A DNA stretch of 64,000 nucleotides from a virus: positions 1 to 64,000 of the IMG/VR virus record IMGVR_UViG_3300017991_000010; one strand, 5' to 3'. The stretch's first letter is position 1; each line of letters opens with the position of its first letter. The translations under genes were made by a program, and so were the position numbers. Shown here one piece after another: positions 19,347 through 55,974 of the stretch. Below the pieces are notes generated by a model. The model worked only from the letters and a program-made list of their open reading frames with translations. It made no database searches and was not told the DNA's origin.

Positions 19347-19882
19347 CAGAGCCGACCATCGACGACAACGAGCTGCTCACCCTGATCGGTGACATCGAGG
19401 CTGCAGGCAAGCGCGTGAGGGCCGCAGGCAAAGCCGGAGGCAAGGCGGTCAACCTGCCCATGCTGATCGGCGGCGACCTGATCCCGATCCTGCTCCAGCT
19501 GGCCAAGCAGCTGCACGAGCGCGACGCAGACCACGACGAGCGGCTCGAGGCGATCGAGGACGCCCTTGGCTACGCGCTCGAGGACGACGAGCAGGGCCAC
19601 CCCTTCGCGGAGGTCCCGGCCCTCGCGGCGCGTGAGCTGCTCCAGATGCTCCAGAGCGTGCTCGGCAAGGTAGCGGCGCTCAAGGGGGCTCCCGACGAGC
19701 AGCTCCTGTACGAGGTCGCGTCCGTCAAGGACATGGTCGAGCACGTGCTCACCGGCGGCGAGTCTTCGACTCCCCAGGCGCCGCCCGAAGAGCCCGAGCC
19801 TGAGCCAGAGGCTGCTGAGCCCGAGGAGACCAAGCCAGAGCCCGAAGATCCCCAGACGGAGGACACAGATGGCGGGAGCTGA
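19343..19882 (+). CDS. Helical protein with an acidic Pro/Glu tail
   Basis: ATGA overlap; EPEPEPE tail. Confidence 0.65.
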   Translation: MTEPTIDDNELLTLIGDIEAAGKRVRAAGKAGGKAVNLPMLIGGDLIPILLQLAKQLHERDADHDERLEAIEDALGYALEDDEQGHPFAEVPALAARELLQMLQSVLGKVAALKGAPDEQLLYEVASVKDMVEHVLTGGESSTPQAPPEEPEPEPEAAEPEETKPEPEDPQTEDTDGGS

Positions 19883-21659
19883 GACCCTAGTACCAGGCGG
19901 CGATGTCGAGGAGGTCTTCGGCGAAGGCGCCTTCATCAACGACGATGACGAGCTGGATCAGTCCGAGGTAGACGACGAGCCCAGGCACGAGGCGTCTGCC
20001 TCCGAGAAACTCGACAGGGCCATGGCGTCGGTCGAGTGGGAGACGGGCGAGTACCACGCTGAGATCAACCGCAAGCAGCCTAGGCAGTACAAGGGGCAGT
20101 CGTGCGGCGGGCAGGTGGCGCAAGTCGATCACCCGGTCGACGTCGCGTGGATCGCCAAGTACTTCGGCGGCGGGACCTACTCGGTCTCGATCAAGGGTCC
20201 AGGCAAGACGGCCAAGTCGCGCAACATGACGAACGTGATCCACAAGAGCGTGTTCGGCATCGTGATCGCAGGCCCGCCGAAGCTTACGGAGCCCTGGCGC
20301 GGCCCCGGCGACGAGCCCGAGGAGGCCAAGGACTCCGCGCCTGAGGCCGGCGGTAACGGCGTGACGCCTCACGTCCTCGAGAAGTTCGTCGACAACTCCA
20401 TTGAGGAGGGGCGCTGGGCGCGCCGCAAGCTCATGGAAGGCCCCAAGCAGGAGAGCGACACGCGGACGCTGCTCGAGTTCCAGCACAAGCAGGCCGCGCT
20501 CGCCCAGAAGCAGAACAGCGAGCTGATGCAAGCAATGCTCATGGGAGCCCAGCGAGACGACGGCACGGGCGCGATTATCGAGAACATGCGCTCGGCCATG
20601 GACCAAGCCACGCGGGATCACGCCCGCGAGGTGCGCGAGCAGGCGGAGCGCCACCGCGACGAGGTCAACCGCCTCCAGCAGGAGTACTCACGCGAGCGCG
20701 AACAGCAGCGTGACATCCTGGCCAAGGCGCAAGCCGACGCGCGTGACGAGATGGCCCGGCGCGAGCAGGCCGTGCGCGACAACATCGCGAGCCAGATCGT
20801 GTCGGTCAAGGAGAACGCCGAGGCGCGCGAGAAAGCGCTCCAGGACCTGATCGCCGACCTGCGCGAACGCTTGCGCTCTGCCGAGGGCAAGCTCGAGGCG
20901 GCCGGCCGTGCCGAGCAGGACGCACGCTTGAAGGCCGTGGGGCTCGAGGCGACGCTGCAGAACCGGCCCGAGCCGAAGGAGCCGCTGACGCACTTGCAAG
21001 AGTTCATCACGCTCGGCACGGAGGTGTCGAAGCTCACTGGCAACGCGCCTGCCGAGCCCACCGTGATCGACCAGGTCACGGGCATCCTCGCCTCCCCCGC
21101 CGCCTCGCGCGTGGGAGAGGGCATCGCAGGCCTGCTGGGCAACCTCGGCTCCCGACTGGGTGGCGGCGGTGCGGCGGCCCCTCCGCCCCCGAGCGTGGGC
21201 ATGGAGGCTTGGCAGCAGCACGTAGGCGCGGGACAGCAGGTCCAGCAACTGCCCCAACCGCCTGCAGCCCCGCCCAAGCGCCGCCGTCGGCGCGTGAAAG
21301 TGGCCCCGGGCTCGGAGCCAGAGCAAGAGGTCGAGCCCGAGATCCCCGAGGGCGTCGAGCAAGAGCCCCCGGTCGAGCAGCCCAGCGAGTTCGACCCGAA
21401 CCAGGTGCTACAGGCTATCGAGCAGGCGGCGATGGAGGAGATGGACCACGACGTGTTCATCGGCCAGTTCGTCGAGATGCAAGGCGTAGAGCCGGCCATC
21501 GCCGACGCCCAGCTCATGATGCTGGCGAGCGCGCCCGCCGACCAGGTCATCGCCGAGATCGAAGGCGCGCTAGGGCAGATGTCCTCGGGCGCGAGGATGT
21601 ACATCCGACACGTGCGGGCGCACCTGCGCCAGCGCTTTCAGCTACCGGCGGAGGAGTAA
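19869..21659 (+). CDS. Large coiled-coil protein; possible scaffold or membrane-shaping morphogenesis factor
   Basis: Long R/E/Q/A heptad-like region followed by an amphipathic Gly-rich helix and Pro-rich linker; function is inferred. Confidence 0.6.
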   Translation: MAGAETLVPGGDVEEVFGEGAFINDDDELDQSEVDDEPRHEASASEKLDRAMASVEWETGEYHAEINRKQPRQYKGQSCGGQVAQVDHPVDVAWIAKYFGGGTYSVSIKGPGKTAKSRNMTNVIHKSVFGIVIAGPPKLTEPWRGPGDEPEEAKDSAPEAGGNGVTPHVLEKFVDNSIEEGRWARRKLMEGPKQESDTRTLLEFQHKQAALAQKQNSELMQAMLMGAQRDDGTGAIIENMRSAMDQATRDHAREVREQAERHRDEVNRLQQEYSREREQQRDILAKAQADARDEMARREQAVRDNIASQIVSVKENAEAREKALQDLIADLRERLRSAEGKLEAAGRAEQDARLKAVGLEATLQNRPEPKEPLTHLQEFITLGTEVSKLTGNAPAEPTVIDQVTGILASPAASRVGEGIAGLLGNLGSRLGGGGAAAPPPPSVGMEAWQQHVGAGQQVQQLPQPPAAPPKRRRRRVKVAPGSEPEQEVEPEIPEGVEQEPPVEQPSEFDPNQVLQAIEQAAMEEMDHDVFIGQFVEMQGVEPAIADAQLMMLASAPADQVIAEIEGALGQMSSGARMYIRHVRAHLRQRFQLPAEE

Positions 21660-22486: not shown

Positions 22487-23017
22487 ATGAGACTAGCGGC
22501 GGTCCCCTCGTACCATACCCAGCGATATCAGGGCACAACCAATACCGTCCGTCACATGGACCAGCTGGCGCGAGGGCCCAGGGGCGAGCGCTCCATGAAG
22601 CTGCGCATGACCGTCGAGGACATCGTCTCCGGCGTCGAGCCACGTGATCGCGTCAGCCAGCTCGCGGCCATCTACGCTTGGTTCAACGATCACTTCCACT
22701 ACATCAACGACCCCGTCGAGGTCGAGCTGGTCAAGGACCCTGAGCGCCTGCTCGAGGAGATCGAGCGCCGCAACGTGGCCATGGGCGACTGCGACGACGC
22801 AGCCACCTTTCTGTTCGCCGCGCCGCGCACCATTGGCATCCCTACCGAGTTCCTTCGGGTTGGCTTCAAGGCCAACGCGCCGATGGGGGGGCGCCTGACG
22901 CACGTGCTCGTGTGCGCCACCGACCAGTACGGCCGGCGCGTTCTCCTGGACCCAGTGGCGGGCAAGCGCGTGCCCAACATGGTTGAGCGCGTCAAACACG
23001 CCGTGAGGGGGTACTGA
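22487..23017 (+). CDS. Transglutaminase-like (papain-fold) Cys-His-Asp enzyme; candidate virion maturation protease
   Basis: HYINDP..VE, GDCDD (catalytic Cys), THV (His), LDP (Asp). Confidence 0.8.
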   Translation: MRLAAVPSYHTQRYQGTTNTVRHMDQLARGPRGERSMKLRMTVEDIVSGVEPRDRVSQLAAIYAWFNDHFHYINDPVEVELVKDPERLLEEIERRNVAMGDCDDAATFLFAAPRTIGIPTEFLRVGFKANAPMGGRLTHVLVCATDQYGRRVLLDPVAGKRVPNMVERVKHAVRGY

Positions 23018-23928
23018 TGCCCACGCTGCTCCGCACCACTGCTGCGCCCGTCGTCCCCGTCCACAAGCCCGAGAAGGCCGAGGCGCCGCCGGACGTGCGC
23101 CAAGTCCGCAGGCCCAAGGTCACCTCGCGCTTTTCAGTCGCGCCAGTAGTCGCGCCAATCCACAAACTGAAGTCCTCCGCGGCGTTGGCTCCGGTCGCGC
23201 CAGTAACCGCGCCAGTTCAGCGAGCGCCGGCCAAGTCGCCCGACCCGCTGCCGCCGGCGATCACGACGAGGACGGCGCTCATGCGAGCGGCACGCGCCGC
23301 GCGCCCCGCTGCCGCGCCCGACCCGCTCCCGCCTGCGATCAGCGTCCAGGCGCCAGCGCGCAAGATCTTTGCCAGAGAGGAACGAGAGATGGTCCCATTC
23401 ATCAGCCAGACCCCGCCGCGCGAGCAGATGGCCCGTGAGGAGCAGTACGCCACCGAGCGCATGCAGAAGGTCCCGGCCACCCCATTCGTCAGCAAGAAGC
23501 AAGCGGCGGCGGCCAAAGCCGAGCGCGAAACGATGCTCGAGAAGCCGCCGGAGGTCTCCCCGGGCGAGAAGGTCCCGATCGTCGAGGTCGAGAAGGCCGA
23601 CCCGGTCCCCGCTGATGTCACGCCGATCAAACAGCCCGTGTACGTCCCGGCGGCGACGATGACCCCCCGCGAGGTGGCGATGGACGCGGCCCGACAGGCT
23701 GCGGCGCGCGGCGAGGGCCTGTTGCAGCAGCCCGAGGCTCCCGTGCAGCGTCGCGGATTCCAGCTCATGCACCTCTTGCCCTTTGCCCTGGGTGGCCTGG
23801 GCGGCTACCTCGGGCATCGTTACGCCAAGAAGCGAAAAGTGGCGGGCGCGGCCGTAGGGGCCGTTGCCGGTCTTGCGCTCCCAACGATCGTGCTGTACCT
23901 GCTGATGACCATCGGCCACCGGCAGTAG
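23017..23928 (+). CDS. Pro/Ala-rich protein with two C-terminal TM helices
   Basis: PDPLPPAI twice and APV repeats; LLPFALGGLGGYLG-KKRK-VAGAAVGAVAGLALPTIVLYLL. Confidence 0.7.
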   Translation: MPTLLRTTAAPVVPVHKPEKAEAPPDVRQVRRPKVTSRFSVAPVVAPIHKLKSSAALAPVAPVTAPVQRAPAKSPDPLPPAITTRTALMRAARAARPAAAPDPLPPAISVQAPARKIFAREEREMVPFISQTPPREQMAREEQYATERMQKVPATPFVSKKQAAAAKAERETMLEKPPEVSPGEKVPIVEVEKADPVPADVTPIKQPVYVPAATMTPREVAMDAARQAAARGEGLLQQPEAPVQRRGFQLMHLLPFALGGLGGYLGHRYAKKRKVAGAAVGAVAGLALPTIVLYLLMTIGHRQ

Positions 23929-23943
23929 GAAAGGAACAGAGTC

Positions 23944-24171
23944 ATGAAGAAGCAGTTTGAGCTGGGCATCTTCCAGCCCCACCGCAAGAACGGCCCCAAG
24001 TGCGCCATCTGCTACGAGCCCCTCCAGGGCGGCGAAGAGGCAGAGGGCCCGCCCGAGGAGCCCGCCCCCGTCGTGCAGCAGGCTGGCTTCGGCCTGCCGA
24101 GCTGGTCGGTTTGGATCGCCCTGGGCATCGCCGGCTACTTCGGCCTGAAGCACTTCAAGGTGATCAAGTAG
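23944..24171 (+). CDS. Small C-terminally anchored membrane protein
   Basis: CAIC motif; GFGLPSW-TM-KHFKVIK. Confidence 0.7.
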   Translation: MKKQFELGIFQPHRKNGPKCAICYEPLQGGEEAEGPPEEPAPVVQQAGFGLPSWSVWIALGIAGYFGLKHFKVIK

Positions 24172-24172
24172 C

Positions 24173-24400
24173 GTGGCCACTCTCGACCAGATCGCCTCGA
24201 CCCTCGAGCGCATAGACGCACGCCTGGACCGGCTCGACGCGCGCCTCCTGGTGATGGAGTCCAACATCACCATGATCCGTGAGGCGTACGTCAAGTGGGG
24301 CCAGCGCATCGCGTCGCTCGAGGTCGAGGCAGAGAAGAGAGCGGACAGGCTCACGCCCGTCCCCGAGCCGGAGGTGCTAGATGTTCGCGCGATTCGCTAA
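24173..24400 (+). CDS. Short coiled-coil protein
   Basis: LERIDARLDRLDARL heptads. Confidence 0.6.
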   Translation: MATLDQIASTLERIDARLDRLDARLLVMESNITMIREAYVKWGQRIASLEVEAEKRADRLTPVPEPEVLDVRAIR

Positions 24401-26489
24401 CCGCAACGCGCCCTGGAAGCGCTGCTCGCTGTGCGGGCCCTCCTCGGGCATGGGGCTGATCCCGCCGCTCACGAGCACGTCCGACCTGACGCGCATGATC
24501 CGCGACCGGATCGCCATCTACCGCAGCGCCGAGGGCGCCGAGTGGTCGGCGGCGCACGCGTCCTTGCGCGAGGCGGTCCTCGCCGGACGCTCCCGCGTCG
24601 AGGAGGGGCAGCCCCCCGTCGTGCCCGACCAGGAGTGGGCCGCACTCAACGCAGCCCTGCGTGAGGCCTACGCGGCCGGGCGCGAGCAGATGGGCCAGAA
24701 GGGTGAGGCGCCGGGCGTGCAAGCCTACGTCCCGCCCATCCCGGAGCCGCCCGGAGGGGCTGCCGAGGGGGGGAGCGTGACCGGCAGCTCGAGGGCCTGG
24801 ATGCTGGGCGGCGGCCTTGCGCTTGGTGCGCTCGCGCTCGTGTTCCTTGCGACGAGAGGAAAGTGACATGCGACGAGGATGGCAGAAATACCCGCGCCGG
24901 CACGTGTTCAGTACGCCGGGACTGAGCGACCTCCCGGCTGCGCTGGCGACTCTGCAGCAGCAGATGAACGGGCGGGCGCACACCGTGACGACGCGCCTTG
25001 CGGCACTGCGCGCAGGCTCGGGCACAGAGGCCTCGGTCGTGCAGGCGCTCCAGAGCCTCGCGTCCGTGCTAGGTCAGGCCCAGACGGCCGCAGACGGGCC
25101 GGCTCCCGCGGGCGCGACTCCGGCCGAGTGGCAGGGCTTCAAGGACACGCTCCGACGCAAGCGCTACACGTACACGTCGGCCTCGGCCGAGCTGGGACGC
25201 ATCTCGGCAGGGCGCCAGGCGGCTGCGGGCGTGACCCCAGCACAGGCGACCGTGACCTCGCCGACCACGGGCAAGCAGGCGACCGTCACGACTCGGACCT
25301 CTGCCGGCGCCGCGATCCCGCCCGAGATCCAGCAGGCAGCTGCCGAGCACCAGACCGCGGGCGTGTTCGCTGGACTCCAGGGCTTGCCCTCGTGGGCGTT
25401 GCCCGTGGGCGCGGGCCTCGCTGTTGCGGCCGTGGCGTACTTCGCGACGAAGAAGAGGTAGCAAATGGCCACCGCTGCGTCATGCAAGACGAACATTCAG
25501 GCTGGGATTCTATGGCTCGAGGCAAAGCGCAACGAGTTCATGGAACAGGTGAGCGACTTTGCGCGTCGCACTGGCCGCGTGCTCTCCTACGCGACGATCT
25601 TCCAGTCCCAGAGCTTGGCAGCCGGCCTGGTGGACTACTACACGCGGCTTGAGGCAGCCCGCACCCGACTCTACAACGATGCACAGGCATGCGTGCCTCT
25701 GGCTGGGTCGGACCCAGATGTGGCTGGACTCGTGCGCAGCGCCGTCACGGCAATCCGCGAGGCCGAGACCATCATGGAGGCGTACCGGGGCTCGGCGCTC
25801 TACCAGGGGCGCGCGGATCGCGTGTCAGAGGTAGCTCAGTACGCCATTGAGCGCCCGCAGGAAGTGGCAGCAGCCACAACGGCACGCATCGAGCGCGCCC
25901 GGGTGTACCTTGACGCAGCTGGGAGCGTGTACGGGGGCGTGCAGGACATTGTGCGCGGCGAACAGCCGGAGCCGTCAGGCTGGGACCTGCCAACAAGCGC
26001 GCGCATGGCTCTCATGATCGCAGCCGGCGGCGGCCTCGGGCTCGGTGCGATCTACGTGATGAAGCGATTCGGGCTCCTCGGGGCCTAGAGAGGAATACGG
26101 CAATGATACCGAGATGGGCAAGTGCTCACATCCTGTCCAGGCCAACCGAGGAGCTGATCTACACGATGACGCAGGGCGCGTTGGAGATCAACGCTGGGTT
26201 CGATGGCCCGGTCACTTACACAGCTGGGGGCCGATCGGCGGCTGTACCGAAGGTGGAGCTGGAACGCGCTCGCTACCGAGCACTACGGTCACGAGGAGTC
26301 GACGTGGACGCGGCGCTACGCAGCGGGCTGAGGGCGTCGGGCAGTTTTCAGCAAGGGCCGGTTGACCCAGCGATCCTGCGCCAAGCGGGCATTGTCGCAG
26401 GTCCACTGGGCATCCCGACCCGCTACTACCTGTACGGTGGGCTGGGTCTGGCGGGCCTGGCGCTGTTGCACATGATAACGAGGAGATAG
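24381..26489 (+). CDS. Four consecutive C-terminally anchored membrane proteins (24381-24866, 24868-25461, 25465-26088, 26103-26489)
   Basis: Each ends in a Gly-rich TM helix plus basic tail: ...VFLATRGK, GLPSW...YFATKKR, ...IYVMKRFGLLGA, ...LHMITRR. Confidence 0.75.
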
Positions 26490-26491
26490 GT

Positions 26492-28553
26492 ATGCCAGGG
26501 ATCACGGACGTACTCAGCCAGGGACCGATCGCGTTCCTGCAGACCTACCGCGGGCCATGCACCGACACTGCCCAATGCTGTGCGTTGGTACGCGCCGCCT
26601 CGGAGGGCGGGCTGCAGCAGATCCTGTCGGGCGAGGCGTCTCCCTCGTTGCCTCCGATCTTCTCTTGCCACACGGCTGCCCGAGAGGCGTTGACAGAGCG
26701 GCAGACCAACAGGAGCATCCGCAACGCCATGATGATCGGGGGGGTTGCTGGCGCGGTTGTTGGCGAGCGTTTGGGCGGCGGGTGGATGCTCGCGATCTGT
26801 GGGATCGCCGGATCACTCGTCGGGCGGGCTCTGGCGTGGCCTAGGGGCTGATGATGAACTACGCAGAGCTGATTTGGCGCGCGGCTGGACTCGGTGTGGG
26901 GGCCCTTGCCGGTTGGCTGGTTGCTGGTAGAACGGGCGCTCTAGTGGTAGGCGGCGCGGGGGCGCTCTTTACCCCAGAGTTGATTGCTTACGGAGCACGC
27001 GCGAGTCGTGCGGCTCGCACGATCGCACGATAGAGAGGAATACGATGCCACAGTACGTAAACGGGAAACTCTACAACATGCACGGCGAGGGCTCGGTCCC
27101 GATCGGCCCGGCCATCCCCTGGCGCGGGGGCGTCTTCGGACAGCCGCCGCTCCCCCAGCCGCGCGCGGGCATCTTCACCGCCCACTGGCCCCTGCCCTGG
27201 CAGGCCCAGACCGACAACACGATCGGTCCGCGGCACAACCTCCTGCCCGATCGCTACATGCGCTCGAGCGGCTGGCCCGTCTACGGCTTGGGCGACAACC
27301 AGAACGTCGAGTACGGCGCGGGGCGGGGCATGATCTCGCGTCTCGTCGCAGGTGGCGTGGCGCCCCTGCGCACGGCCATGTCTGTCGAGGGAGCGACCTC
27401 GATGGCCGCAGCCAACCCGGCGATCCTCGGTGCGCTCATCGGCGCGATCGGCGCGGGCAAGGGCAAGCGCCTCAAGGGCGGTCTGCTCGGCGCGTTGCTG
27501 GGCATCGGCGGCAAGATGACCGCGCAGGCGGTCTCGGGCCCCACAGCCATGGGCGCGCAGGCGGGCGGCGCTGCCACGGGCGGCCTCGCTGCGGCGCTGT
27601 TCCTGCGGAGGTAGTCATGCCCAAGATCACGGCAGGCTCGAACCTGTACAACGCGGACCCGCCGCGCCAGCCCGGCCCAGGCGGCCGTAGCTACCCGGCG
27701 TACGGGCGTGAGTGCCCCCCGGCGGCCCTGCGTCCCATCTCGAGCGGCTACAACACGATGATGTCCACCGGCTACCCCACGCGCTCGGCGTGCCTGAAGT
27801 GCGGCCCTCCTACGGTCGCGCCATACTGGTCGGGCGGGGGGATGGCAGGCATGGGCGTGGGCACGACGATCGCTGCGTTGCTCTTCACGGGCATCGGAGG
27901 CGTGATCGCGGCCTACATGGCCCCAGACGGCCGCCGGCTCGTCGGCGCGCTTGCGGGTGGCATCCTCGGGTGGGGCACCTCCTATGCCGTCAACGAGATG
28001 ACGGGCAGCGTGGGTGCAGCGGCCGTGTCCCAGGTTCCGGCAGGCATCCTGGCGGGCATGCTCGCGAGAAAGCTATGAACCGCGCCCTCTACAACCCAGC
28101 CCTGAGCGATGGCTTCCGCATCGGAGGAGGCTTCGGCGCAGGCATGATCGCTTTCCTCGTCATCGGAGGCGTGGTAGTCTTGTGGCTACTGGACCACGCG
28201 ATCGGCGATCAGTCGGTCGAGGCGAGATGGAGGAGGACCCACAGATGATCCTCTCAGCACGACGACCCGACGGCACGTACGTCTACTACCAGGCCGCCAA
28301 GCACCCTGGCCGCGCCAAGGGCCCCAGGCCCGGCGCTATCGGCCTCGGTGTCGAGCAGGCCGTGCCCACCTGCCCCTGGGGCGCGAAGCGTGTCGGCAGC
28401 GGCAGGCGCGCTCGTGGCGTGGTTTGTCGGCAAGGCGGCCTCGCGGGCCTGGGCGATCTCGCAGGCATGAGCGGCCCCATCGCGGGCATCCTTCTCACAG
28501 CGGCCCTGTTCGGTGCGGTCTGGCTGGCCGGGCCGATCCTGTCGGGGCGCTGA
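26492..28553 (+). CDS. Six small Gly-rich membrane proteins (26492-26851, 26851-27033, 27045-27614, 27617-28078, 28075-28248, 28245-28553)
   Basis: Glycine-zipper hydrophobic helices; tightly coupled starts and stops. Confidence 0.7.
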
Positions 28554-29041
28554 TGACCCTCGCCGCCGTCAAGAACCGCTGGTCGACCTTCCATCAGAAG
28601 GAGCCGCGCGAGCTGATCGAGATCGACGCGCCCTGGCCCAAGGCCTGGGGCTACGTTGGCGAGGCCGTGCGCGTCTACTACCTCAGCGACAAGTGGAACG
28701 AGGACGGCGACTTCATCCCGTACTACCACGACCACGACGGCGGGGTCGAGCTGTGGGAGCCCTGGGGCGCGCAGGACGGCATGACCGACAAGTGCAAGAG
28801 CCCCGCGCGCGGCATCCCCTGCAAGCAGGCAGCGGTCCTGGGCTACTGCCTGGGCTGGTGGCTGCTCGACGAGGACGACCCCAAGAAGGTCGACGCGGTC
28901 GAGTTCGATGAGGACGAGGCGCTCCTGTGCTCGACGGCATCGGGCAAGGCGCTCTTCGTGGTGAGCTTGAGCGATGGCAAGGTCATAGCGGCGTTTACTG
29001 GTGGCAACCTGTCCGTCGAGTCGGCGGGCATCGACGGCTAG
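28553..29041 (+). CDS. Hypothetical protein, probably virion-associated
   Basis: TFH..EP...GEAVRVYYLSDKW...YYHDH...GG.L.V...GI; located in the morphogenesis operon. Confidence 0.6.
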   Translation: MTLAAVKNRWSTFHQKEPRELIEIDAPWPKAWGYVGEAVRVYYLSDKWNEDGDFIPYYHDHDGGVELWEPWGAQDGMTDKCKSPARGIPCKQAAVLGYCLGWWLLDEDDPKKVDAVEFDEDEALLCSTASGKALFVVSLSDGKVIAAFTGGNLSVESAGIDG

Positions 29042-29051
29042 AGGTGATGAA

Positions 29052-29870
29052 ATGGCGTTCATGATCCCGGTGTATAGCAAGGCGGACTTCGTAGAGGTTG
29101 ATGGCAGCTACGGCGACACGTTCCTGGTTCCGTTCGAGTACTACGACGAGGATTCTGGCGAGATCGTGGAGGAGTACTCGGGCAAGTGGTTCTGTCAGCT
29201 GAGTGCCCCCGGCTACATGGACCAGACCGACTGGATGGGGCCCTTCGACACACTCAAGGAGGCGAAAGCCGAGCTGAGCGACGTCTACGAGGTCGACCCG
29301 GAGACGGGCGAGCAGTTGGAGTACTAGACGATGGCACGGCGATCCGACTATCAGTGGTCCCGCAACTCCTCGGTGGAGGCGCGCGAGCTGGCGATCTTCA
29401 TCGACAACGACGGGCAGCTCTACCGGCAGATGGTGGTGCCCATTCAGAAGAACCTCGTGACCAAGATGGCACGCGGGACGTACGACAGCGAGAAGGCCCA
29501 CAAGGCGTTCTACAACCTCGCCGTCGAGGGCGCCAAGCGCTACACCAATACGCACGGCGGACGAGGGGCCGTGTGGCACGAGATGTTCTCCGTAGCCGAC
29601 CGCAAGGCCGCAGCCGCCGAGCTGCTCGCGGGCTTCGAGGAGGAGGCCGAGCTGGGCAACTACGACGACCTCCTGCCGAAGAAGTACCGGCGAAATGCGG
29701 GCGGATCGGATATGGTCCCCCACCCCAACGTCAACTGGTGGGATCGTGAGGATCTGGAGCGCTACTTGGTGTGGCGTGGGTTTGCGGTGTACGCCAGAGA
29801 GACCGACGACGAGCTGCGGAACGCTGTGCGAGAGGATCTGCCCCAGGCTGAAGCTGACGGCTGGATCTAG
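29052..29870 (+). CDS. Two hypothetical proteins resembling phage early-gene families (29052-29327 acidic; 29331-29870)
   Basis: WFCQLSAPGYMDQTDWMGPFDT; ARELAIFIDNDGQLYRQ...GTYDSEKA; family resemblance from memory only. Confidence 0.6.
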
Positions 29871-30106
29871 CCCTCGATCGACCGCCCCTTCAGAGCAGCC
29901 CCCTTCACCTTCTTCGTCCGCGAGTAGCGTATCAGCGCGAGCAGGTCCTTGCGCATGATGCGTGTCGTCCCTCCCACGCGCACGCAAGGCAGCACGCGCT
30001 TCTGCAGCCAGCGCTTGACCGTCGAGACGTCCACGCGCATGTACTGGGCGACCTCGCCGATCGTGAGCAGGTGGTGCGGCGGGAGGCGGGTTTGCAGGGG
30101 GCGCAT
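29867..30106 (-). CDS. Excisionase-like HTH_17 DNA-binding protein
   Basis: LLTIGEVAQYMRVDVSTVKRWLQKRVLPCVRVGGTTRI. Confidence 0.85.
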   Translation of the reverse strand: MRPLQTRLPPHHLLTIGEVAQYMRVDVSTVKRWLQKRVLPCVRVGGTTRIMRKDLLALIRYSRTKKVKGAALKGRSIEG

Positions 30107-30114
30107 ATGGTAGC

Positions 30115-30242
30115 ATCATACTAGATCGTAGAGCGTCGGTCAACGCGCGAAGATCATTGCACCCGACCAAGAAGACCACCTTCCTTCTGGGCGCGCACGC
30201 CCGCGAGACGTATTGACTCCCTCCCTCCAGCGCGCGTACTCT
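30115..30242. promoter_or_regulatory. Back-to-back divergent promoters
   Basis: Minus strand: TTGACC(30143-30138)-17 nt-TATGAT(30120-30115). Plus strand: TTGACT(30213)-18 nt-TACTCT(30237). Confidence 0.65.
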
Positions 30243-30300
30243 TGATCGCGTACCCACCGATGCGCCGCCCGGCCTCATCGGCCAACGAAAGGGCGGCTCT

Positions 30301-31917
30301 ATGGCTCGAGTGACCTACCGCAGCAGGCGCCGGACGGCCAAACCCAACCCGGGCTTCCTGACCCTGGTCAATCCGGGCAAACCCCCCCGCAAGCGGAAAC
30401 GAGCCAAGCCCAAGAAGCGAACCACGGGGGCCAGCCGGCGCCCGAGAGCAAACAGCACTGGAGGAACAATGCTGAGAAGGAAAAAGCGGCGCGCAGCCCC
30501 GAAGCGTCGGCGCAAGGTCGCCAAGCGCAACCCGATGTCGGCTGCCAAGCGCAAGGCCGCAGCCAAAAAGGCTGCCCGGACCCGCGCTGCCAACAAGCGG
30601 AAGCGGTCCCTCGCGGCCAAGAAGGCCGCCCGGACGCGCAAGCGCAAGTCGCGCAAGCGTGCAGCCCCGAAGCGCTCGTACCGGCGCAATGCTTCCAAAA
30701 AGCGGAAGCTGACCGCGGCGCAGAAAAAGCGGCGCGCAGCTGCCCTCAAGGGCATCCGGCTCAAGAAGGGCCGCAAGGGCAAAAAGCGCAAGGTCACCAA
30801 GGGCGTCAGCCCCCGGCCCAACCGCAGGCGGCGCGTGACCCGTCGGCGTAGGAGCTACATGCGCAACAGGCCCGTCCGTAGGCGGCGCATCAGGCGCAGG
30901 GCCAAGCGGAACGTCGGGCTGGAGATGCTCAAGAGCGTGGGCGCTGGCTTCGCCGGCTTCCTGGCGGGTCGACTGACCGCCAACATGCTTGCTCGGGCGA
31001 CCTTCCTGCCCGCAGCTGTGCAGCCCTACGTGCCCCTCGTCGGAACCGTCGGCGCTGTGGCGCTGGCCTACTACCTCCCGAAGAAGGTCAAGGCCCTCAG
31101 GGTCAAGCCGGCCACGCACACCGCTCTGGTGCTCGGCACCGGCATCGCGGCTGCGGACGTGCTCTTCTCGTCCCTGGCCCCCGCCAGCGTGCGTCAGTAC
31201 GTCGGCGCTCCCCCGCCTGTGGCCATCCCCGGCCTCTCGGGCGACCTGAGCGTCTACGAGGCCTCGCTGCGCGGCTTCGGCACCCCGCCCGCCTTCCTCG
31301 ACGAGAGCGGCGACTGGGGCATGCAGCCCATGTTGCCCGGCCGGAGCTACCCCGTGGGCAAGTCCATGGCCGAGTACGTGCAAGAGCCCCTGGGCGCCAC
31401 CGTACACGAGGCGATGGCCGAGTACATCCAGGAGCCCGGCATGGGCGAGTACGTCGTGGACGAGGATGGCGCAGTCCTCTCCGGCCATGACGAGCTGGAC
31501 GCAGGCGTCGTGAGCGACGGCCTGTTCGGCGACGACGTGGACATCATGGCTCTCGATGGGGACGAACTCCCTTTTGAGGGTAGCGCAGCTGCCGGCGCCG
31601 CCGCGGCTGCAGCGCGTCGCATGGCTCAGATCGGCGCAGCCAACGGCCGCCCCGAGGCTGAGGTCCACCGTGCCGGCTACGGCGCAGCGTGCCAGGCCAT
31701 TGGCGCGGGTCAGCTCTCGAGCGCCCTGCGTGCGATGGTCGAGGCGGAGATCCAGAAGGCCATGGGCCGCGTGCAGGCGTTCACGCCCGTGCAGGACCCG
31801 GCCGCTGGCGCCCCGATGGCCGTCGGCCCGATCCGCGCCCCCCAGCCCGCCAAGTGGACCTACGGGTCCGTGAGCGAGGGCGGAGGCGTCTTCGGGAAGT
31901 CGAGCATCGGCGGCTAG
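30301..31917 (+). CDS. Extremely basic, membrane-linked putative core/DNA-condensing protein precursor
   Basis: N-terminal ~200 aa dominated by R/K (AAKKAARTR twice), then three hydrophobic helices, an acidic region with MAEY(V/I)QEP repeats, and C-terminal GGVFG. Confidence 0.7.
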   Translation: MARVTYRSRRRTAKPNPGFLTLVNPGKPPRKRKRAKPKKRTTGASRRPRANSTGGTMLRRKKRRAAPKRRRKVAKRNPMSAAKRKAAAKKAARTRAANKRKRSLAAKKAARTRKRKSRKRAAPKRSYRRNASKKRKLTAAQKKRRAAALKGIRLKKGRKGKKRKVTKGVSPRPNRRRRVTRRRRSYMRNRPVRRRRIRRRAKRNVGLEMLKSVGAGFAGFLAGRLTANMLARATFLPAAVQPYVPLVGTVGAVALAYYLPKKVKALRVKPATHTALVLGTGIAAADVLFSSLAPASVRQYVGAPPPVAIPGLSGDLSVYEASLRGFGTPPAFLDESGDWGMQPMLPGRSYPVGKSMAEYVQEPLGATVHEAMAEYIQEPGMGEYVVDEDGAVLSGHDELDAGVVSDGLFGDDVDIMALDGDELPFEGSAAAGAAAAAARRMAQIGAANGRPEAEVHRAGYGAACQAIGAGQLSSALRAMVEAEIQKAMGRVQAFTPVQDPAAGAPMAVGPIRAPQPAKWTYGSVSEGGGVFGKSSIGG

Positions 31918-31992
31918 CAACTGAAACGACCGGCGCCTCTCCTCGCCATGGAGGCTAAAGAAACGGCGTCGGCAAGCATAGAGGAGGCAGTA

Positions 31993-32604
31993 ATGCCTAA
32001 GATTCGCGGAGCAAGAGAGAAGCGCCACCAGCCGTTCTGGGATAGCCTGATTCGCGGCACGGCGGGCAGCTACACGTTCGCATCCGGCGCAAACGCGCTG
32101 GGCGCGACCAACAACCTGTTCCAGACCCAGTCGGGCGGGAACCTGGCGATCACCAACATGGAAGGCAGCGGCGTCTTCCCGTCGGATCAGACCTACCGAA
32201 TCCTCGCGATGCGCGTGGGACTGCACTTCCGCGGGATCACCGGCGGCGGCCTGACCGATCACATCATGTACCACCGAGCCGCCTGCCAGCTCTTCTGGGA
32301 GCTGTTCGTCGCCCAGAAGTCGGCGTTCCAGGCGTACACGCCCTACCTGCCCCTCGGCGGCGGGCTCTTCGGTGACGTCGGCAACGACACGACCGTGTAC
32401 TTCAACAACGGAAACCCGGGCATGGACGCGACCATGGTTCTCGCCCGCAGCATCGCCCTCCCGGCGAGGCAGAACTTCCGCGTCGTGAACACGATCGTGG
32501 CCTGCGGCGCCGCCAACTTCCTCACCGACATCGGCAGCGTGACCGGCGGGGAAATCTGGATCTGGTACACGGTGGACGGCTTGCACGTCCGCGACATCCT
32601 GTAG
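31993..32604 (+). CDS. Putative major capsid protein (single jelly-roll candidate)
   Basis: 203 aa, beta-strand pattern, strong GAGGAGG RBS, very high codon bias, directly after the basic protein; fold is inferred. Confidence 0.5.
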   Translation: MPKIRGAREKRHQPFWDSLIRGTAGSYTFASGANALGATNNLFQTQSGGNLAITNMEGSGVFPSDQTYRILAMRVGLHFRGITGGGLTDHIMYHRAACQLFWELFVAQKSAFQAYTPYLPLGGGLFGDVGNDTTVYFNNGNPGMDATMVLARSIALPARQNFRVVNTIVACGAANFLTDIGSVTGGEIWIWYTVDGLHVRDIL

Positions 32605-32740
32605 CAGCTGCTCCCACGCGGGAGTTTCGACTGCAGGATAGTTCGAGTTTCATACCCCCCACCGTCTGGCGTGACGCTGGGCGGTGGGGGAGTGCCCCTG
32701 CCAGGGGGCTACCCACTGCCCCGGGCAGTTAGGAGAAAGC
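32605..32740 (+). promoter_or_regulatory. Multi-hairpin intergenic element after the putative capsid gene
   Basis: CTCCC/GGGAG, CCCCACCG/CGGTGGGG, GCCCC/GGGGC and ACTGCC/GGCAGT stems. Confidence 0.5.
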
Positions 32741-32745
32741 AAAAG

Positions 32746-33384
32746 ATGACCATCCCCTCCCTCAACAACCTGGCCAAGGCCATCCGCACGATCGATGGTA
32801 GGTTCAAGGCGCTCCAGCAGAACATCCTCCAGCGCCAGGACAACCTCGACAAGCTCCTCGTAGGGCGCGAGCCCACCGAGTCAGATCGCTTGGTTGCGTG
32901 CGCGGCGAAGATCATCCCCTTCCACTACGTGATCGACATCGACTTCGACGCGGCAGACACGGCCAGAAGGCCCGGCACCGTGACCATCACACAAGAGGGC
33001 TACTTCTTGATGGATCGGCTGTACGCTTGCTGGCGCCCCACTGACGGCGCATTCATCGGTCGTTACCAGCCGATCTCGAGCGACAGTCCTGCTATCGCCA
33101 ACGCCGAGTTAGTCAGCGGTGGTCAGTTCGCAAACAAGGTCGACTTCACCTGGGAACTCGTCGAGGGCGCGGCCCAAAGGGGTCGTCAGGACTTCGCAGT
33201 CCCCGGCGCGATCCTCTACCGGACCGATGACGACGGCTACACCCAGAAGTGCAGCGACATCTTCATGCCGGCCTCGGTCGTCACGCTCTCCTGCACCCCG
33301 CTGTACGCGACGGCCACCGCAGGCACCTTCACCTTCGTGCTCGCTGGCCGCCAGCTCCTCAACGTCGTGGAGGGCGGAGCGTGA
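32746..33384 (+). CDS. Beta-rich putative capsid-related protein with an N-terminal coiled coil
   Basis: PFHYVIDIDF...TVTITQEGYFLM...FMPASVVTLS...FTFVLAGRQL. Confidence 0.45.
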   Translation: MTIPSLNNLAKAIRTIDGRFKALQQNILQRQDNLDKLLVGREPTESDRLVACAAKIIPFHYVIDIDFDAADTARRPGTVTITQEGYFLMDRLYACWRPTDGAFIGRYQPISSDSPAIANAELVSGGQFANKVDFTWELVEGAAQRGRQDFAVPGAILYRTDDDGYTQKCSDIFMPASVVTLSCTPLYATATAGTFTFVLAGRQLLNVVEGGA

Positions 33385-34019
33385 GTGTGACTCGCCCAAA
33401 CAGGCGGCTGCGCGCGGGAGACCCGGCGCCCGCTGTGGCCGGCAAGCCCTCTGCAGGCGGCATCATCCGCCCCGGCGCGCCCGAGGCGGAGGCATGCGGC
33501 TGCAACTGGAATCGCAACGTCTTCTGGGAGGACTTCCCCTGGGAGAAGGTAAGTTGGTTCAGTCGCGAGGCGCGCGTCAGTATAGCCGCCGGGCCTGGCC
33601 AGTATGTCGTCGACACATTCACGATCCCACGGGGACAAGTGCTTGCCCTGACGTCGGTCTTGTTCCGCGTGGTCGTCCAGCTGGGGGGTGTTGCGGGACC
33701 TTACTTCTTCCTGCCGGATGACGGTGTCTTGTTTCAGTGCGCCTTTGGGTTCATGATCGGCGGCACGTCTCCATTCGATCGCTACTTCAATATGGGGCTA
33801 GGCGACCAGAACCGCTGGGAGGTACTCAACCGGAACATTGCAACCGCTGGCGTTCCGTGGCGCACCTACGCTTTTGAGGGGCAGGATGTCGTCTCGGTCT
33901 TCGACGCGCCTCTCCTTCCAGCCAACGCAACATTTGCGCTTGTCGAGTACCAGGGCGTCTGGATTCCCAAGAGGACCTACGACATGTACCGAGAGAAGTT
34001 CACCGGGGGGCGTGGCTGA
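33381..34019 (+). CDS. Beta-rich putative minor capsid or vertex protein
   Basis: YVVDTFTIPRGQVLALTSVLF...AFEGQDVVSVF...VEYQGVWIP; GTGA overlap. Confidence 0.45.
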   Translation: MSVTRPNRRLRAGDPAPAVAGKPSAGGIIRPGAPEAEACGCNWNRNVFWEDFPWEKVSWFSREARVSIAAGPGQYVVDTFTIPRGQVLALTSVLFRVVVQLGGVAGPYFFLPDDGVLFQCAFGFMIGGTSPFDRYFNMGLGDQNRWEVLNRNIATAGVPWRTYAFEGQDVVSVFDAPLLPANATFALVEYQGVWIPKRTYDMYREKFTGGRG

Positions 34020-35287
34020 TGGCTGCTGCTGAACAGGTCGCCGGCCGAGCACCTACCGAAGTCGAGAAGCGCGATGTGGCCGCGCGCCTCGAGCGCCTGC
34101 GCAAGTCCATCAGCGCGTTCCATCGGGCGCGCCTGAAGACCGGCGAGTACCTCATGGGCATGCGCAAGATGCGCTACCCCCAGGCCCAAGGCATCGAGGT
34201 GGCGCGATCGCTCCGTAGCCCCGTGGACGAGGAGCGCGCCGTTGGCGGCCTGCGCTCGCTCAACCAGCTCTTGCTCGGGCGCGATCCTACGGTCGCCGAG
34301 ATGGAGGCTGGCGTAGCGGTCCAGGAGACAGGCCTCGGGATCATCCCTGCGCTGCCTGCCACTTGGGTCGCCGTCACGGCCATCGCAGGCGGGGCCTGGT
34401 CCCTGTCCTCGATCTTCGACGCCCTGACCGAGCGCGAGCGCCGCATCCAGCGCGAGCTGAACCCCTCGGCGGCATTCTGGTCGGACGTAGCCAACACCGC
34501 AGCGACCTGGGTCTTGCCCGTGCTCATCGTGGGGGGCGTGGTCGTGGGCGGCTGGTACCTCTGGTCCAGGATGAAGAAGGGCAAGGGCCGCAAGCGCAAG
34601 GGCAAGCTCCAGAGCAAGCGCCCTGCCAAGAAACTGCCGCCGAAGCCGGCGGAGAAAGAGAAAGAGGAGTAGCCAATGCAGACTCCTGTCAACGACTACA
34701 TCGCCCGGCTTGCGACGCGGCTGGCCAACAGGACCTTGCGCCGGCTCGCGACGATCCCCATGGCGCAGAAGCGCGCGCTCTCTCTCCGCGGCATCCTGCG
34801 CCAGCTGAACGTGGAGAAGGTCTACGAGGCGGCTGTCTCCGGCGGCATGAACCCCAAGACCGCCCTCGTCGCAGCCTACGCCGAGTACCTACGCAGACAG
34901 GGCGGCCTACCCCAAGGCGGCCTTGCTGACTTCGAGGAGGACATGGCCCAGGCCGAGCAGATCATGGGCGCCATCGAACAGGGCGCGGACACGCTGGAGC
35001 ACGTCGTCGACACGGGCACCTCCATCTACGGCTCGATCGCCGGGGCCATCCGCGGCGAGACCACGGGCGAGTCCCCGCCCCAGCTCACCGAGGAGGGCGC
35101 GCGGCGCCTGGCCCAGATCCGCGCGGGCGGTATCGCCGTGGGCCAGCCGGTCGCGGCGCCTGGCGTGCTCGATTCCATACTCGGCGGCGGCCCGGGAGGC
35201 ATGTCGACATCCATCCTGATCGGCGGGGCGGCGGCTGGCGCAGCGCTGCTCTACTTCCTCGCGACCAAAAAGAAGAAGCGGAAGTGA
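34019..35287 (+). CDS. Two membrane-anchored proteins (34019-34672, 34676-35287)
   Basis: TM helices followed by Lys-rich tails (...RMKKGKGRKRK; ...YFLATKKKKRK). Confidence 0.75.
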
Positions 35288-35293
35288 TCACCG

Positions 35294-36574
35294 ATGAACG
35301 CCGGCAACGCCCGCTCGCTCACGTGGCTCGAGTACTACGGCATCCTGCGCGCCCAGGGGAAGTCCCCTCGGGCCGCAGCCGTCTTCTGTGAGCAGCCCTC
35401 CGAGGAGGCAGCCGAGCGCTTCACCCAGCTCTCCGAGATCGCTAGCCTCATGCAGCAGTCGCGCTCGGCCGTCCGCGACGTAGCCTTCACCACCCAGGCC
35501 AACATCATCTCGGCCGTGCCTGTCGTGGGCAACTTTGCCGCGCGCGTGCTCGGCTGGATGCGCGACCTCGTCTCCGCCATCGAGAAGGTGCAGCGTCAGG
35601 CGTGCGAGGACGACTGCCCAGGCATCAACAGCTGGGCGCGACGCAACATCATTGGCATCAACCCGGGCCCCGGTGGCATGGAGGTCATGGGCACGCTCAT
35701 CTGGAGCCTGCACGACGGCCTCGTTGTCGACGGGCTCGGGGGCGGCGCCGACGCGCTGGGGCGGTACGTGGGCGTGATCACGCGCGTGGGCCCGGCCGAC
35801 TCCGGCAGGACGACCTCCGAGGGCGTGTGGTCCACCGACTCGCGCTATGCCTCCCTGCTCGACCCGCGGGTGGCGCGAGAGGGCCGCTACGCCAACTGGC
35901 CGCCGGCTGGCATCCCCGAGGGCAACTACGCCCACCCCGAGGCTGCCCCCGGCAACAACTTCTGGTACAGGGCCTGGCGCGTCCAGCAGATCCTGAACTG
36001 GATGGAGAACAAGATGAGCTGCCGGGACGCCTGGTGCTTCCGCGAGCAGCTGCGCACCTTCTCCATGGCGATCAAGGGCGCGCTCAAGGAGGAGGGCGTC
36101 GCCGCTGAGCAGGCCGACCGCGTCGCGGACCAGGCCACCCGCCGCAAGGGCTCGCGCTGGTACGCGTCGATGTGGCAGCTCCACAAGGACGTCTGGGACC
36201 TCGCCGCCGGCCGCCCCGAGGTCGCAGACGTGGCGCAGGCCCTCGGCGAGACGACCTTCGCGAGCGAGTACCGCGCGGCCATCGCCGGCAAGACGTACCC
36301 CGAGCGCGACCTGCGCATGTGGCCCTGGTGGCCCATCACGAAGAAGCTCTCGTGGGACGGGGCGCGCGCTCTGCTCCTCGAGATCGCTCCCGTGCCCCAG
36401 CTCACGGCAGCGGGCGCGGCGCGCCTTGCTCAGATCCGAGCAGGCGGCATTGCGCTCCAGCAGGCCCAGGCAGCGCGCCCCGTGGCCAGGGACCCCGGAC
36501 TACCCTCCTGGGCGCTCCCGGCCGGTGTGGTTGCCGCTAGCGGCCTTCTCTGGTACCTTCTGAAGGGAAAGTAA
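35294..36574 (+). CDS. 426-aa protein with a GLPSW-TM-basic C-terminal anchor
   Basis: Ends DPGLPSWALPAGVVAASGLLWYLLKGK. Confidence 0.75.
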   Translation: MNAGNARSLTWLEYYGILRAQGKSPRAAAVFCEQPSEEAAERFTQLSEIASLMQQSRSAVRDVAFTTQANIISAVPVVGNFAARVLGWMRDLVSAIEKVQRQACEDDCPGINSWARRNIIGINPGPGGMEVMGTLIWSLHDGLVVDGLGGGADALGRYVGVITRVGPADSGRTTSEGVWSTDSRYASLLDPRVAREGRYANWPPAGIPEGNYAHPEAAPGNNFWYRAWRVQQILNWMENKMSCRDAWCFREQLRTFSMAIKGALKEEGVAAEQADRVADQATRRKGSRWYASMWQLHKDVWDLAAGRPEVADVAQALGETTFASEYRAAIAGKTYPERDLRMWPWWPITKKLSWDGARALLLEIAPVPQLTAAGAARLAQIRAGGIALQQAQAARPVARDPGLPSWALPAGVVAASGLLWYLLKGK

Positions 36575-38257: not shown

Positions 38258-38713
38258 ATGCCTGGTCCTTTCGATCGATCCATTCTCGACGCGCTGACCG
38301 GCTCCCTGGTTGACACCGTCAAGGGCGCCGCCTACTCCGCCATCCCCGAGTGCAACTGCTGCGACCAGAAGGCCGTGCCCATCCCGTGCGTGGCCTGCGG
38401 CGAGTACTCCTGCATCGATCATGGGTTCTTCAACAAGCGCCTACAGGCGATCTGCGGCCAGTGCGCCATGGCGCTCGAGGTCGACCTCGACGAGGACGAG
38501 CCCCAGGTGGCCGACGTCGACGCCGAGCGCATCGACTGGGCGTTCTCGATCCTGGGCCTGAGTAAGAGCGCGACAAGCGACGAGATCAAGGCCGCGCACC
38601 GCAAGCTGGCCATGCAGTACCACCCCGACCGTGGGGGCAATGAGACGGACTTCTCGCAGGCGCAGAAGGCCTTCGAGGTCGCGTCGGAGTACGCAAAGCA
38701 GGAGGGACGATAG
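38258..38713 (+). CDS. J-domain (DnaJ-like) co-chaperone with an N-terminal Zn finger
   Basis: FSILGL...EIKAAHRKLAMQYHPDRGG..DF; CxxC/CxxH clusters. Confidence 0.9.
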   Translation: MPGPFDRSILDALTGSLVDTVKGAAYSAIPECNCCDQKAVPIPCVACGEYSCIDHGFFNKRLQAICGQCAMALEVDLDEDEPQVADVDAERIDWAFSILGLSKSATSDEIKAAHRKLAMQYHPDRGGNETDFSQAQKAFEVASEYAKQEGR

Positions 38714-55748: not shown

Positions 55749-55974
55749 GGGGTCTTCTTGACGACGGGGCGTCCGCTGTGGCGCGCTTGTCGGCTGTTGG
55801 TGACCAGGTTCGGCATCGCCTGAACGTGCCCGGACCAGCGCGCATTCACCCTGGGGCCATCGTTCGGTAGGCATCTACGATCGCGAAGGCCCTTGTAATT
55901 GGGCGATCGCGCAACTGTAACGGCCCGCCGCACCTCTGCTGTGTCCTCCGCCAGCTCCTCGATCTCGTCGAACA

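Follow-up and report, generated by a model that had tools for sequence, protein, structure and literature searches.

Dedicated maturation proteases are of the serine type in tailed phages and of the adenain-like cysteine type in eukaryotic large DNA viruses. The prohead proteases, for example T4 gp21 and phiKZ gp175, are serine enzymes with the herpesvirus assemblin fold; they cut after Glu and remove N-terminal targeting peptides at short motifs. C-terminal sorting signals (LPXTG for sortase, PEP-CTERM for exosortase and GlyGly-CTERM for rhombosortase) consist of a signature motif, a transmembrane (TM) helix and a basic tail. We know of no description of maturation proteases with short recurring tags in membrane-containing tail-less prokaryotic viruses, and to our knowledge no transglutaminase-fold enzyme is known as a virus maturation protease. 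In adenovirus and in the virus of African swine fever (ASFV), the proteases adenain and pS273R cut many core and membrane virion proteins at GG-X, and I7L of poxviruses uses AG-X sites, including in the A17 membrane protein (PMC1198262). LapG and DvhG are Ca2+-dependent proteases that cut adhesins at [T/A/P]AAG; the site-specific cut, at a short motif of small residues, releases the protein from a membrane-associated anchor, and in DvhG the Ca-site residues D316 and E318 flank the catalytic C317 (PMC13090378). Here we analyze the window, the first 64 kb (64,000 nucleotides) of the 94,028-bp virus record IMGVR_UViG_3300017991_000010, in which a gene for a small transglutaminase-fold enzyme (g22487, positions 22487..23017, + strand) stands ahead of a block of genes, many for membrane proteins, that carry a recurring glycine motif.

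The glycine motif of the gene block

The window alone does not establish the motif. The first-pass annotation of this DNA had listed strings of the form G-[LMF]-[GSA] at apparent domain boundaries of the proteins encoded behind g22487 and had proposed that the enzyme processes, or cross-links, these proteins. All of the listed strings were present at the genes named, among them AGLQGL in g24868, which reads GLQ and does not fit the pattern. Nineteen proteins in the window held 27 motif matches (approximately 16 expected), many of them in TM helices rich in Gly, Ala and Leu; such helices contained about one third of all matches in the window. With TM helices masked, we counted 21 matches to G[LMF][GSA] (15.8 expected, P=0.09) and 12 to G[LMF]G (6.4 expected, P=0.03, uncorrected), and on these values we do not regard the motif as established.

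The motif was enriched when the blocks of related viruses were included. With an alignment of the enzyme as query, scans found 47 metagenomic contigs and six viral ones of 54-179 kb, of which three had terminal repeats. Outside TM helices, eight related blocks (this virus and seven others) contained 85 G[LMF]G against 31 expected. Control patterns in the same blocks were not enriched: G[IV]G was found 29 times (25 expected), G[IVA][GSA] 138 times (152 expected) and A[LMF][GSA] 109 times (110 expected). We compared the blocks with the rest of the genome in this virus (G000) and in three complete or near-complete genomes (G001, G003 and G005). The four structural blocks together had 64 G[LMF]G versus approximately 21 expected, and the rest of those genomes 92 versus 82. 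Observed and expected numbers in block and rest, respectively, were 9/5.1 and 18/18.3 for G000, 9/3.5 and 13/16.2 for G001, 21/6.8 and 27/21.8 for G003, and 25/5.4 and 34/25.7 for G005, in which the enrichment was strongest. An excess in structural over non-structural genes with TM segments masked, as would follow from the first-pass annotation, is thus seen for the blocks of the four genomes.

An unbiased scan of all tripeptides singled out GLG. In 120 block proteins, after masking of TM helices and collapsing of identical repeat copies, GLG ranked first of all tripeptides (63 versus 22.1 expected, in 48 of the 120 proteins, Poisson P=1e-12). GFG was enriched 2.2x and GMG 1.8x, and GIG was at 0.47x; in 482 non-block proteins GLG was at 1.16x. 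The variants in the third position (GLS, GLA, GMS, GMA, GFS and GFA) were at 0.5-1.06x, which rules out Ser or Ala there as an enriched part of the motif, although GLG-to-GLS swaps still occur at some conserved sites. The enrichment replicated separately in G001, G003, G005 and L032. Many different 9-mers encode the sites; a repeated DNA-level word is therefore ruled out, and selection acts on the protein. Based on the lineage-wide pattern, we conclude that the motif is real and is best written G-[L>F>M]-G (G-Phi-G below). Outside TM helices there were 98 instances in 61 of the 120 block proteins, with L in 65, F in 20 and M in 13. What remains of the pattern first proposed is therefore its G-[L>F>M]-G form across the lineage; the [S/A] alternative and a significant signal in the window by itself did not hold.

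GVF was the second most enriched tripeptide (22 versus 5.0 expected, in 15 proteins) and is a second recurring short motif, often G-[GN]-G-V-F-[DG]. Examples are at 27120-27140 of the window and in the 'QGNGVFD' proteins of L007 and L032.

The sites were conserved more often than control patterns. In a comparison of aligned positions in orthologs of 30-60% identity, eight of the 14 non-TM sites were found again in one or more orthologs, and substitutions at persisting sites kept within the motif class. Controls had a median retention of 25% (random G-x3-[G+2] patterns, P~0.04) or 14% (random patterns, P~0.007), and those with the highest scores were M/L/F variants of the motif itself. Two of the sites listed earlier were not retained, including IGLGV of g28245, which is IGV[PA] in seven orthologs and is ruled out as a motif site. 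The expected conservation in homologs was thus found for most of the non-TM sites and not for this one.

The motif had preferred positions within the proteins. Most of the module's small proteins with a C-terminal anchor have it in their soluble parts. The first 60 residues held 48 of the 98 non-TM instances (24.5 expected, ~2x), and eight preceded a TM helix by 6-15 residues (3.7 expected, ~2x). A typical small protein of G003 or L032 consists of an N-terminal peptide, GLG, a soluble domain, GLG, a spacer of 8-12 residues rich in D, A, P and T, a TM helix and a K/R tail. In the G003a_10549 family, G-[LF]-G follows a conserved G-R-x-Phi-x in six of eight genomes, and the site before the anchor is G-[LVF]-G in four of seven (GLG in three and GVG in L033); the L009 member has SGLG further downstream, just before its anchor. 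The G003a_11651 family showed the same behavior of bracketing sites. L033 (JABAHQ010004556.1) has G-V-G at orthologous pre-anchor sites where other genomes have G-L-G, which may be a clade-specific preference that could covary with the pocket of the enzyme. The earlier placement of the motif at domain boundaries was therefore only partly right: the sites bracket soluble domains and precede anchors. Residues around the motif were weakly biased (A/R/S/N before, A/E/G/L/S/Q after). In the g30301 family, the acidic tail has two to five tandem copies of G-[IVLMF]-G-E-[YF]-[FIV] in all five genomes (window 31400-31460 and the orthologs in L065, L066, L067 and L068), and EYF was enriched 9.5x in block proteins.

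The site-bearing block proteins of the window are all encoded on the + strand. The C-terminally anchored g23944 (75 aa, 23944..24171) has GFG at 24085-24093 just before its anchor (AGFGLPSW), and the L011 ortholog has AGMGLP at the aligned position. In the anchored g24381 (161 aa, 24381..24866), GMG at 24447-24455 (residues 23-25) comes after a CxxC and is kept as GLG in L010 and as GMG in L011. The anchored g24868 (197 aa, 24868..25461) has PGLSD (24919-24927). In g27045 (189 aa, 27045..27614), GLG at 27285-27293 separates a conserved N-terminal part from a variable Gly/Ala-rich membrane part and is aligned with GLG in L010 and GLS in G001 and L004. The membrane protein g27617 (153 aa, 27617..28078), for which no ortholog was found, has GMAGMG (27839-27856) at the edge of its first TM helix. 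The anchored g28245 (102 aa, 28245..28553) has GLG at 28341-28349, and GLAGLG (28437-28454) and GMS (28464-28472) before its anchor; in this family of eight members, the pre-anchor stretch keeps GLG, GLS or GLD in G003, G005 and L009. The sites of g30301 (538 aa, 30301..31917; a basic domain, TM helices and an acidic tail) are GLS (31231-31239), GFG (31273-31281) and GMG (31438-31446), which align with GMG, GMA and GMG in the G001 ortholog; the last of them belongs to a G-Phi-G-E-Y-Phi repeat. The two-TM protein g34019 (217 aa, 34019..34672) has GLG at 34331-34339 directly before its first TM helix, and the aligned residues are GLG in L001, GLS in L023 and GLP in G001. In the anchored g34676 (203 aa, 34676..35287), GLA (followed by DF) at 34919-34927 corresponds to GMGDI in the L001 ortholog, one residue out of register, and in the anchored g35294 (426 aa, 35294..36574), GLG at 35732-35740 is GFG in L023 and is not retained in L001.

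Some of these proteins share other segments. The otherwise unrelated g23944, g24868 and g35294 have a common anchor module of G-L-P-S-W-[AS]-[LV], a TM helix and a basic tail (24085-24171, 25380-25461 and 36490-36574, + strand; GLPSWALP in g24868), which suggests shuffling or duplication of anchors. A near-identical segment, A-R-[RL]-L-A-Q-I-R-A-G-G-I-A, is found shortly before the anchors of g34676 (~35090-35130) and g35294 (~36440-36480).

The enzyme and its place in the block

The product of g22487 is a 176-aa cysteine enzyme with the transglutaminase fold. It matched Pfam PF01841 (Transglut_core) with E=8.4e-6 (26.5 bits, cutoff 23), as did 17 of 18 homologs (best E=8.4e-11). Cys102 (22790-22792), His139 (22901-22903) and Asp155 (22949-22951, all + strand) were invariant in an alignment of 18 sequences, together with the entire G-D-C-D-D-A stretch, and the GDCDD/H/D enzyme that had been proposed is thereby confirmed. 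The 40 homologs (41-68% identity) were all from metagenomic or viral contigs. The AlphaFold2 (AF2) model had a mean predicted local distance difference test score (pLDDT) of 86.6 and a predicted template-modeling score (pTM) of 0.83. The top match with VIA-align was a putative protease (3KD4, Z=15.1, rmsd 5.3, 153 residues aligned), and a Foldseek search with the model gave E=2.5e-5. Lower VIA-align matches were factor XIII, TG3 and 3ISR (Z ~10-11), TglA, PNGase, PeiP/PeiW, LapG and arylamine N-acetyltransferases. The listed fold matches were predominantly transglutaminase/papain-like, and no adenain or Ulp1 entries were among them. The enzyme thus has both the papain/transglutaminase core fold and the Cys-His-Asp order. 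The fold is therefore certain, and the chemistry is not fixed by it.

The nearest characterized relatives by sequence were LapG proteases. A profile search of the PDB gave LapG as the sole match of known function (4FGO, E=0.002; 4U65, E=0.03), with GDCED of LapG aligned to GDCDD of g22487. The sole match in NCBIfam was 'cysteine protease LapG' (NF045674, E=1.7e-4), whose score of 20.9 bits is far below the cutoff of 320. Pfam PF06035 (Peptidase_C93) matched no sequence among the 18 homologs, even at E<=1, and the enzyme is therefore a distant relative of LapG and not a member of the family. A protein atlas had many clusters of small transglutaminase-core proteins that are confined to viruses, g22487 among them; the BTLCP signature was present in some. 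The invariant D101-C102-D103 mirrors the Ca-site arrangement of LapG and DvhG, for which the role of the residues has been described (PMC13090378). No obvious signal peptide was visible at the N-terminus on inspection by eye.

Every related virus found had the enzyme gene, and in each it preceded the same block of genes. By tblastn, the conserved order was g19869, the enzyme, small anchored proteins, g28553, g30301, g31948/g32671/g33249, g34019, g34676 and g35294. This order indicates that the enzyme gene belongs to the core genes of the lineage, at the start of the structural block, and is not an accessory gene of this genome. It had been described as heading an operon, and this part of the description is not established: g22487 is one gene within a long co-directional array, and the 190-bp gap upstream of it contained nothing that resembles a promoter or a terminator. 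The neighbor on the 5' side, g19869 (19869..21659, + strand), encodes a 596-aa coiled-coil protein that may be scaffold-like. In the tblastn comparison (synteny in 15 related loci), a gene of this type was 5' of the enzyme gene in most related loci, including L005, L006, L007, L009, L010, L011, L019, L022, L023, L030, L033, L034 and L035.

Possible actions of the enzyme at the motif

All of the links between the enzyme and the motif are circumstantial, and they make an action of the one on the other plausible. Co-occurrence and adjacency of the enzyme gene and the motif-bearing block were universal among the related viruses found. Eight of the 40 enzyme homologs have a C-terminal TM anchor of their own, and in all eight the stretch from catalytic domain to anchor contained G-L-[GSA], which in seven followed the catalytic domain immediately. 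Many of the short forms of the enzyme, including g22487, end at that junction point (...MGY-stop, ...RGY-stop). In L023 (9962-11050, + strand), the frame of the enzyme stays open for 363 residues and continues into a domain like those of g24868 and g24381, and its junction, ALGD, aligns with the N-terminal PGLSD site of g24868. The long frame is either a natural fusion of the enzyme to a substrate family or the result of a sequencing frameshift; a search for longer, fused homologs of the enzyme found none, which is weak evidence. Prediction of a complex of the enzyme with residues 300-400 of g30301 gave a score of 0.00 in a run without controls, which is no verdict, and we used it neither way.

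We tentatively favor, as the explanation that fits best, a LapG-like site-specific protease that reads and cuts G-Phi-G. The small soluble enzyme related to LapG/BTLCP that starts the module would recognize G-Phi-G on membrane and core proteins of the assembling virion and would cleave there during assembly, and such cuts would remove N-terminal peptides and/or detach soluble domains from their C-terminal anchors. The first-pass annotation had read the enzyme as a possible maturation protease, and this agrees with its nearest characterized relatives, which are site-specific proteases. Both the action on the motif and proteolysis as that action are what we infer from the relationships above.

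Several observations weigh against the proposed cleavage at G-Phi-G. The transglutaminase fold also serves isopeptidase, acyl-transfer, deamidase and N-acetyltransferase chemistry, and g22487 scored below the level of membership for the LapG family in Pfam and NCBIfam. There was no extended consensus beyond G-Phi-G, which is little for the site of a specific protease. The enrichment in this virus was the weakest of the four genomes tested. The G-L-G at the domain end of the enzyme itself could simply be the end of a strand and a linker. Some sites are at residues 3-5 of a protein, and tandem G-Phi-G-E-Y-Phi repeats are present in the g30301 family only; both look more like docking. In addition, the gene calls in the relatives were crude (GC3-based), and N-terminal positions of the motif depend on the start codons chosen.

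The main rival is that G-Phi-G is a real site that is not cleaved, either for docking to a capsid, scaffold or membrane partner or as a hinge or turn, with the substrate of the enzyme elsewhere; we consider this possible and somewhat doubtful. Tandem copies, as in the acidic tails of the g30301 family, are typical of multivalent binding motifs, the motif can be at an extreme N-terminus (as in MNNGLGEYF), and Gly-x-Gly turns are frequent at domain ends. The lack of an extended consensus fits as well, and so does a link between enzyme and motif that is one of co-occurrence only. Most sites, however, are not of the repeat type: Glu follows the motif in only 11 of 121 instances of G[LMF]G in the blocks (TM helices unmasked). 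The preference for L, F and M over I is strict, with V in one clade only, and this points to a reader specific for the side chain rather than to a generic flexible hinge, and the position of the motif between catalytic domain and anchor in all eight anchored homologs also argues against this reading. It is extremely unlikely that the motif is an artefact of composition or chance in Gly/Ala/Leu-rich membrane proteins. Such an artefact would account for the lack of significance of the broad motif outside TM helices in the window (P=0.09) and for the many earlier-listed matches in or beside TM helices. For the lineage it is largely refuted by the rank of GLG after TM masking and repeat collapsing, by controls (GIG, GVG, GAG and A[LMF][GSA]) that were not enriched, as the rest of the genomes was not, and by replication in G001, G003, G005 and L032 at sites that are codon-diverse and conserved in position.

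Other rivals keep the motif and change the chemistry, or separate the two. The enzyme could be a sortase-like transpeptidase or transglutaminase that forms a thioester at the motif and moves the released domain to an amine, for example of a capsid Lys or of a lipid head group, and not to water. Acyl transfer is supported by the fold, as judged from the matches to factor XIII and TG3, and the order motif-spacer-TM helix-basic tail in the candidate substrates resembles that of C-terminal sorting signals. We think transfer improbable, because the nearest relatives by sequence are hydrolytic proteases, the spacer of 8-12 residues and the N-terminal sites are unlike sortase-type signals, and no acceptor was identified. 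Without Gln or Lys, the motif gives no indication of classical transglutaminase chemistry, and the cross-linking offered in the first-pass annotation as the alternative to processing gains nothing from it. There is also only a slight chance that the enzyme is a peptidase for the cell wall, or for entry or exit, like PeiW/PeiP, and is unrelated to the motif. Structural matches to PeiP (Z 8.8) and PeiW (Z 8.6) favor such a role, and virion-associated wall hydrolases are common among membrane-containing phages. However, the 176 residues contain no obvious signal peptide and no wall-binding domain and match no PHROG lysin family, the relatives at the level of sequence are LapG and not the Pei enzymes, some homologs of the enzyme are anchored like the membrane proteins of the block, and a strong M23 wall peptidase is encoded elsewhere in the genome. 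This protein, the only other recognizable peptidase (Peptidase_M23 domain, L002:5258-5911 = genome 69258-69911, - strand, outside the window, E=5e-26), is probably a wall hydrolase, and M23 enzymes cleave next to Gly. It would therefore be an example of another virus or host protease that cuts G-Phi-G in place of g22487, an explanation that we regard as very improbable. The M23 gene was absent from the complete genome G005, where the enrichment of the motif was strongest, was strong in G001 and only sub-threshold in G002 and G003, and was never near the block, so we rule it out as a lineage-wide partner. Two other 'caspase-like' candidates had no Pfam family.

Genome context and comparison with known systems

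The virus has a complete genome that lacks detected hallmark genes of tailed phages. A 123-bp exact direct repeat at the ends of the record (window 1-123; genome 93906-94028) indicates a complete circular genome of ~93.9 kb. The GC content is 66%, and a long co-directional array of genes on the + strand extends from ~16 kb to 54 kb. Searches of the genome with Pfam and PHROGs found replication and repair genes, glycosyltransferases and an integrase, with matches to an AAA_25 protein, a SNF2 helicase, a family-A polymerase with a uracil-DNA-glycosylase (UDG) domain, an SMC-like ATPase, a PD-(D/E)XK nuclease and a topoisomerase; neither search detected a terminase, portal, HK97-type capsid or tail module. 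The polymerase (L002:15130-17697 = genome 79130-81697, - strand) has an N-terminal domain of the uracil-DNA-glycosylase superfamily and a 3'-5' exonuclease domain. The tyrosine integrase (Phage_integrase, window 54624-55874, - strand, E=9e-16) suggests a temperate lifestyle. A scan of GTDB representative genomes with the enzyme alignment found no provirus copy of the enzyme gene and so gave no clue to the host. A DnaJ (J-domain) protein, with a relative in L023, is encoded just past the structural block (window 38258-38713, + strand, E=4e-13).

The block appears to be a module for membrane and structural proteins. Between 19.8 and 37.5 kb nearly all proteins are orphans, and most are small, with a C-terminal hydrophobic helix and a Lys/Arg tail. 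PHROGs contained nothing for the block proteins, and blastn of 30301-36574 against phage records gave no match. Three beta-rich proteins (g31948, g32671 and g33249, 31948..34019, + strand) without G-Phi-G sites in the window are candidates for capsid proteins and are conserved in G001, G002, G003, G005, L001 and L023. The AF2 model of g31948, made with six homologs, was beta-rich with a pLDDT of 49, too low for the model to be usable as evidence for a capsid. That the products of the block are virion proteins, as had been assumed, is plausible from the gene context and gains nothing from this model. The data are compatible with a tail-less, membrane-containing virus. Based on these results, we take 22.5-37.5 kb to be the membrane-protein and structural module of a virus from an undescribed lineage of 94-179 kb genomes without detected tailed-phage hallmark genes; our literature search found neither this lineage nor any transglutaminase-fold virion protease described.

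Whether as a cut site or as a docking tag, the motif is useful. Throughout a lineage of uncultured viruses, structural membrane proteins bear this statistically robust short linear motif, which is a handle for finding virion proteins where nearly all proteins are orphans. The analysis also yields one conserved candidate enzyme with named catalytic residues and a set of small, easily expressed candidate substrates. It is conceivable, though we would not call it likely, that large (94-179 kb), apparently tail-less, membrane-containing prokaryotic viruses have a maturation system of their own. In such a system a LapG-like enzyme would read G-[L/F/M]-G on dozens of virion proteins and trim or release domains, or transfer them in the manner of sortase, and it would be convergent with the Gly-site proteases of adenovirus, ASFV and poxviruses on a different fold.

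The enzyme and the motif resemble several known systems in part. PeiW and PeiP, the pseudomurein endoisopeptidases of archaeal viruses, are virus-encoded cysteine enzymes of the transglutaminase fold, as is g22487; they are lysis enzymes with wall-binding repeats and have no similarity to g22487 at the level of sequence, and a separate M23 peptidase is present here. The model matched the cross-linking transglutaminases factor XIII and TG3 in structure (Z 10-11), but the fold leaves the chemistry unfixed, and the recurring motif offers neither Gln nor Lys. Many block proteins have a tripartite arrangement of motif, TM helix and basic tail that resembles that of C-terminal sorting signals. Unlike those signals, they have a spacer before the helix and often a second site near the N-terminus, and the associated enzyme has a different fold, with no sortase-type enzyme identified. 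As with the prohead proteases, one virus protease would act on many virion proteins at a short recurring site, often close to the N-terminus, in a genome that, unlike those of phages with such proteases, has no detected HK97-type capsid, portal or terminase.

The parallel that had been drawn with adenovirus and poxviruses holds as a functional analogy at most. Like adenain, pS273R and I7L, g22487 is a virus-encoded cysteine enzyme associated with short Gly-containing sites. However, those enzymes are SUMO-protease-like with the order His-Asp-Cys and have different hosts, and g22487 has Cys-His-Asp on a transglutaminase core and thus neither the His-Asp/Glu-Cys order nor the Ulp1-like fold of clan CE. 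The closest comparison is with LapG and DvhG (BTLCP, Peptidase_C93). The virus enzyme differs from LapG in being encoded by a virus, without an obvious secretion signal or a LapD-like regulator, in having G-Phi-G and not [T/A/P]AAG as its candidate motif, and in having many candidate substrates rather than one or two giant adhesins. It shares with LapG and DvhG the transglutaminase-like fold, the Cys-His-Asp triad and acidic residues on both sides of the catalytic Cys, D-C-E in those proteases and D-C-D in g22487.

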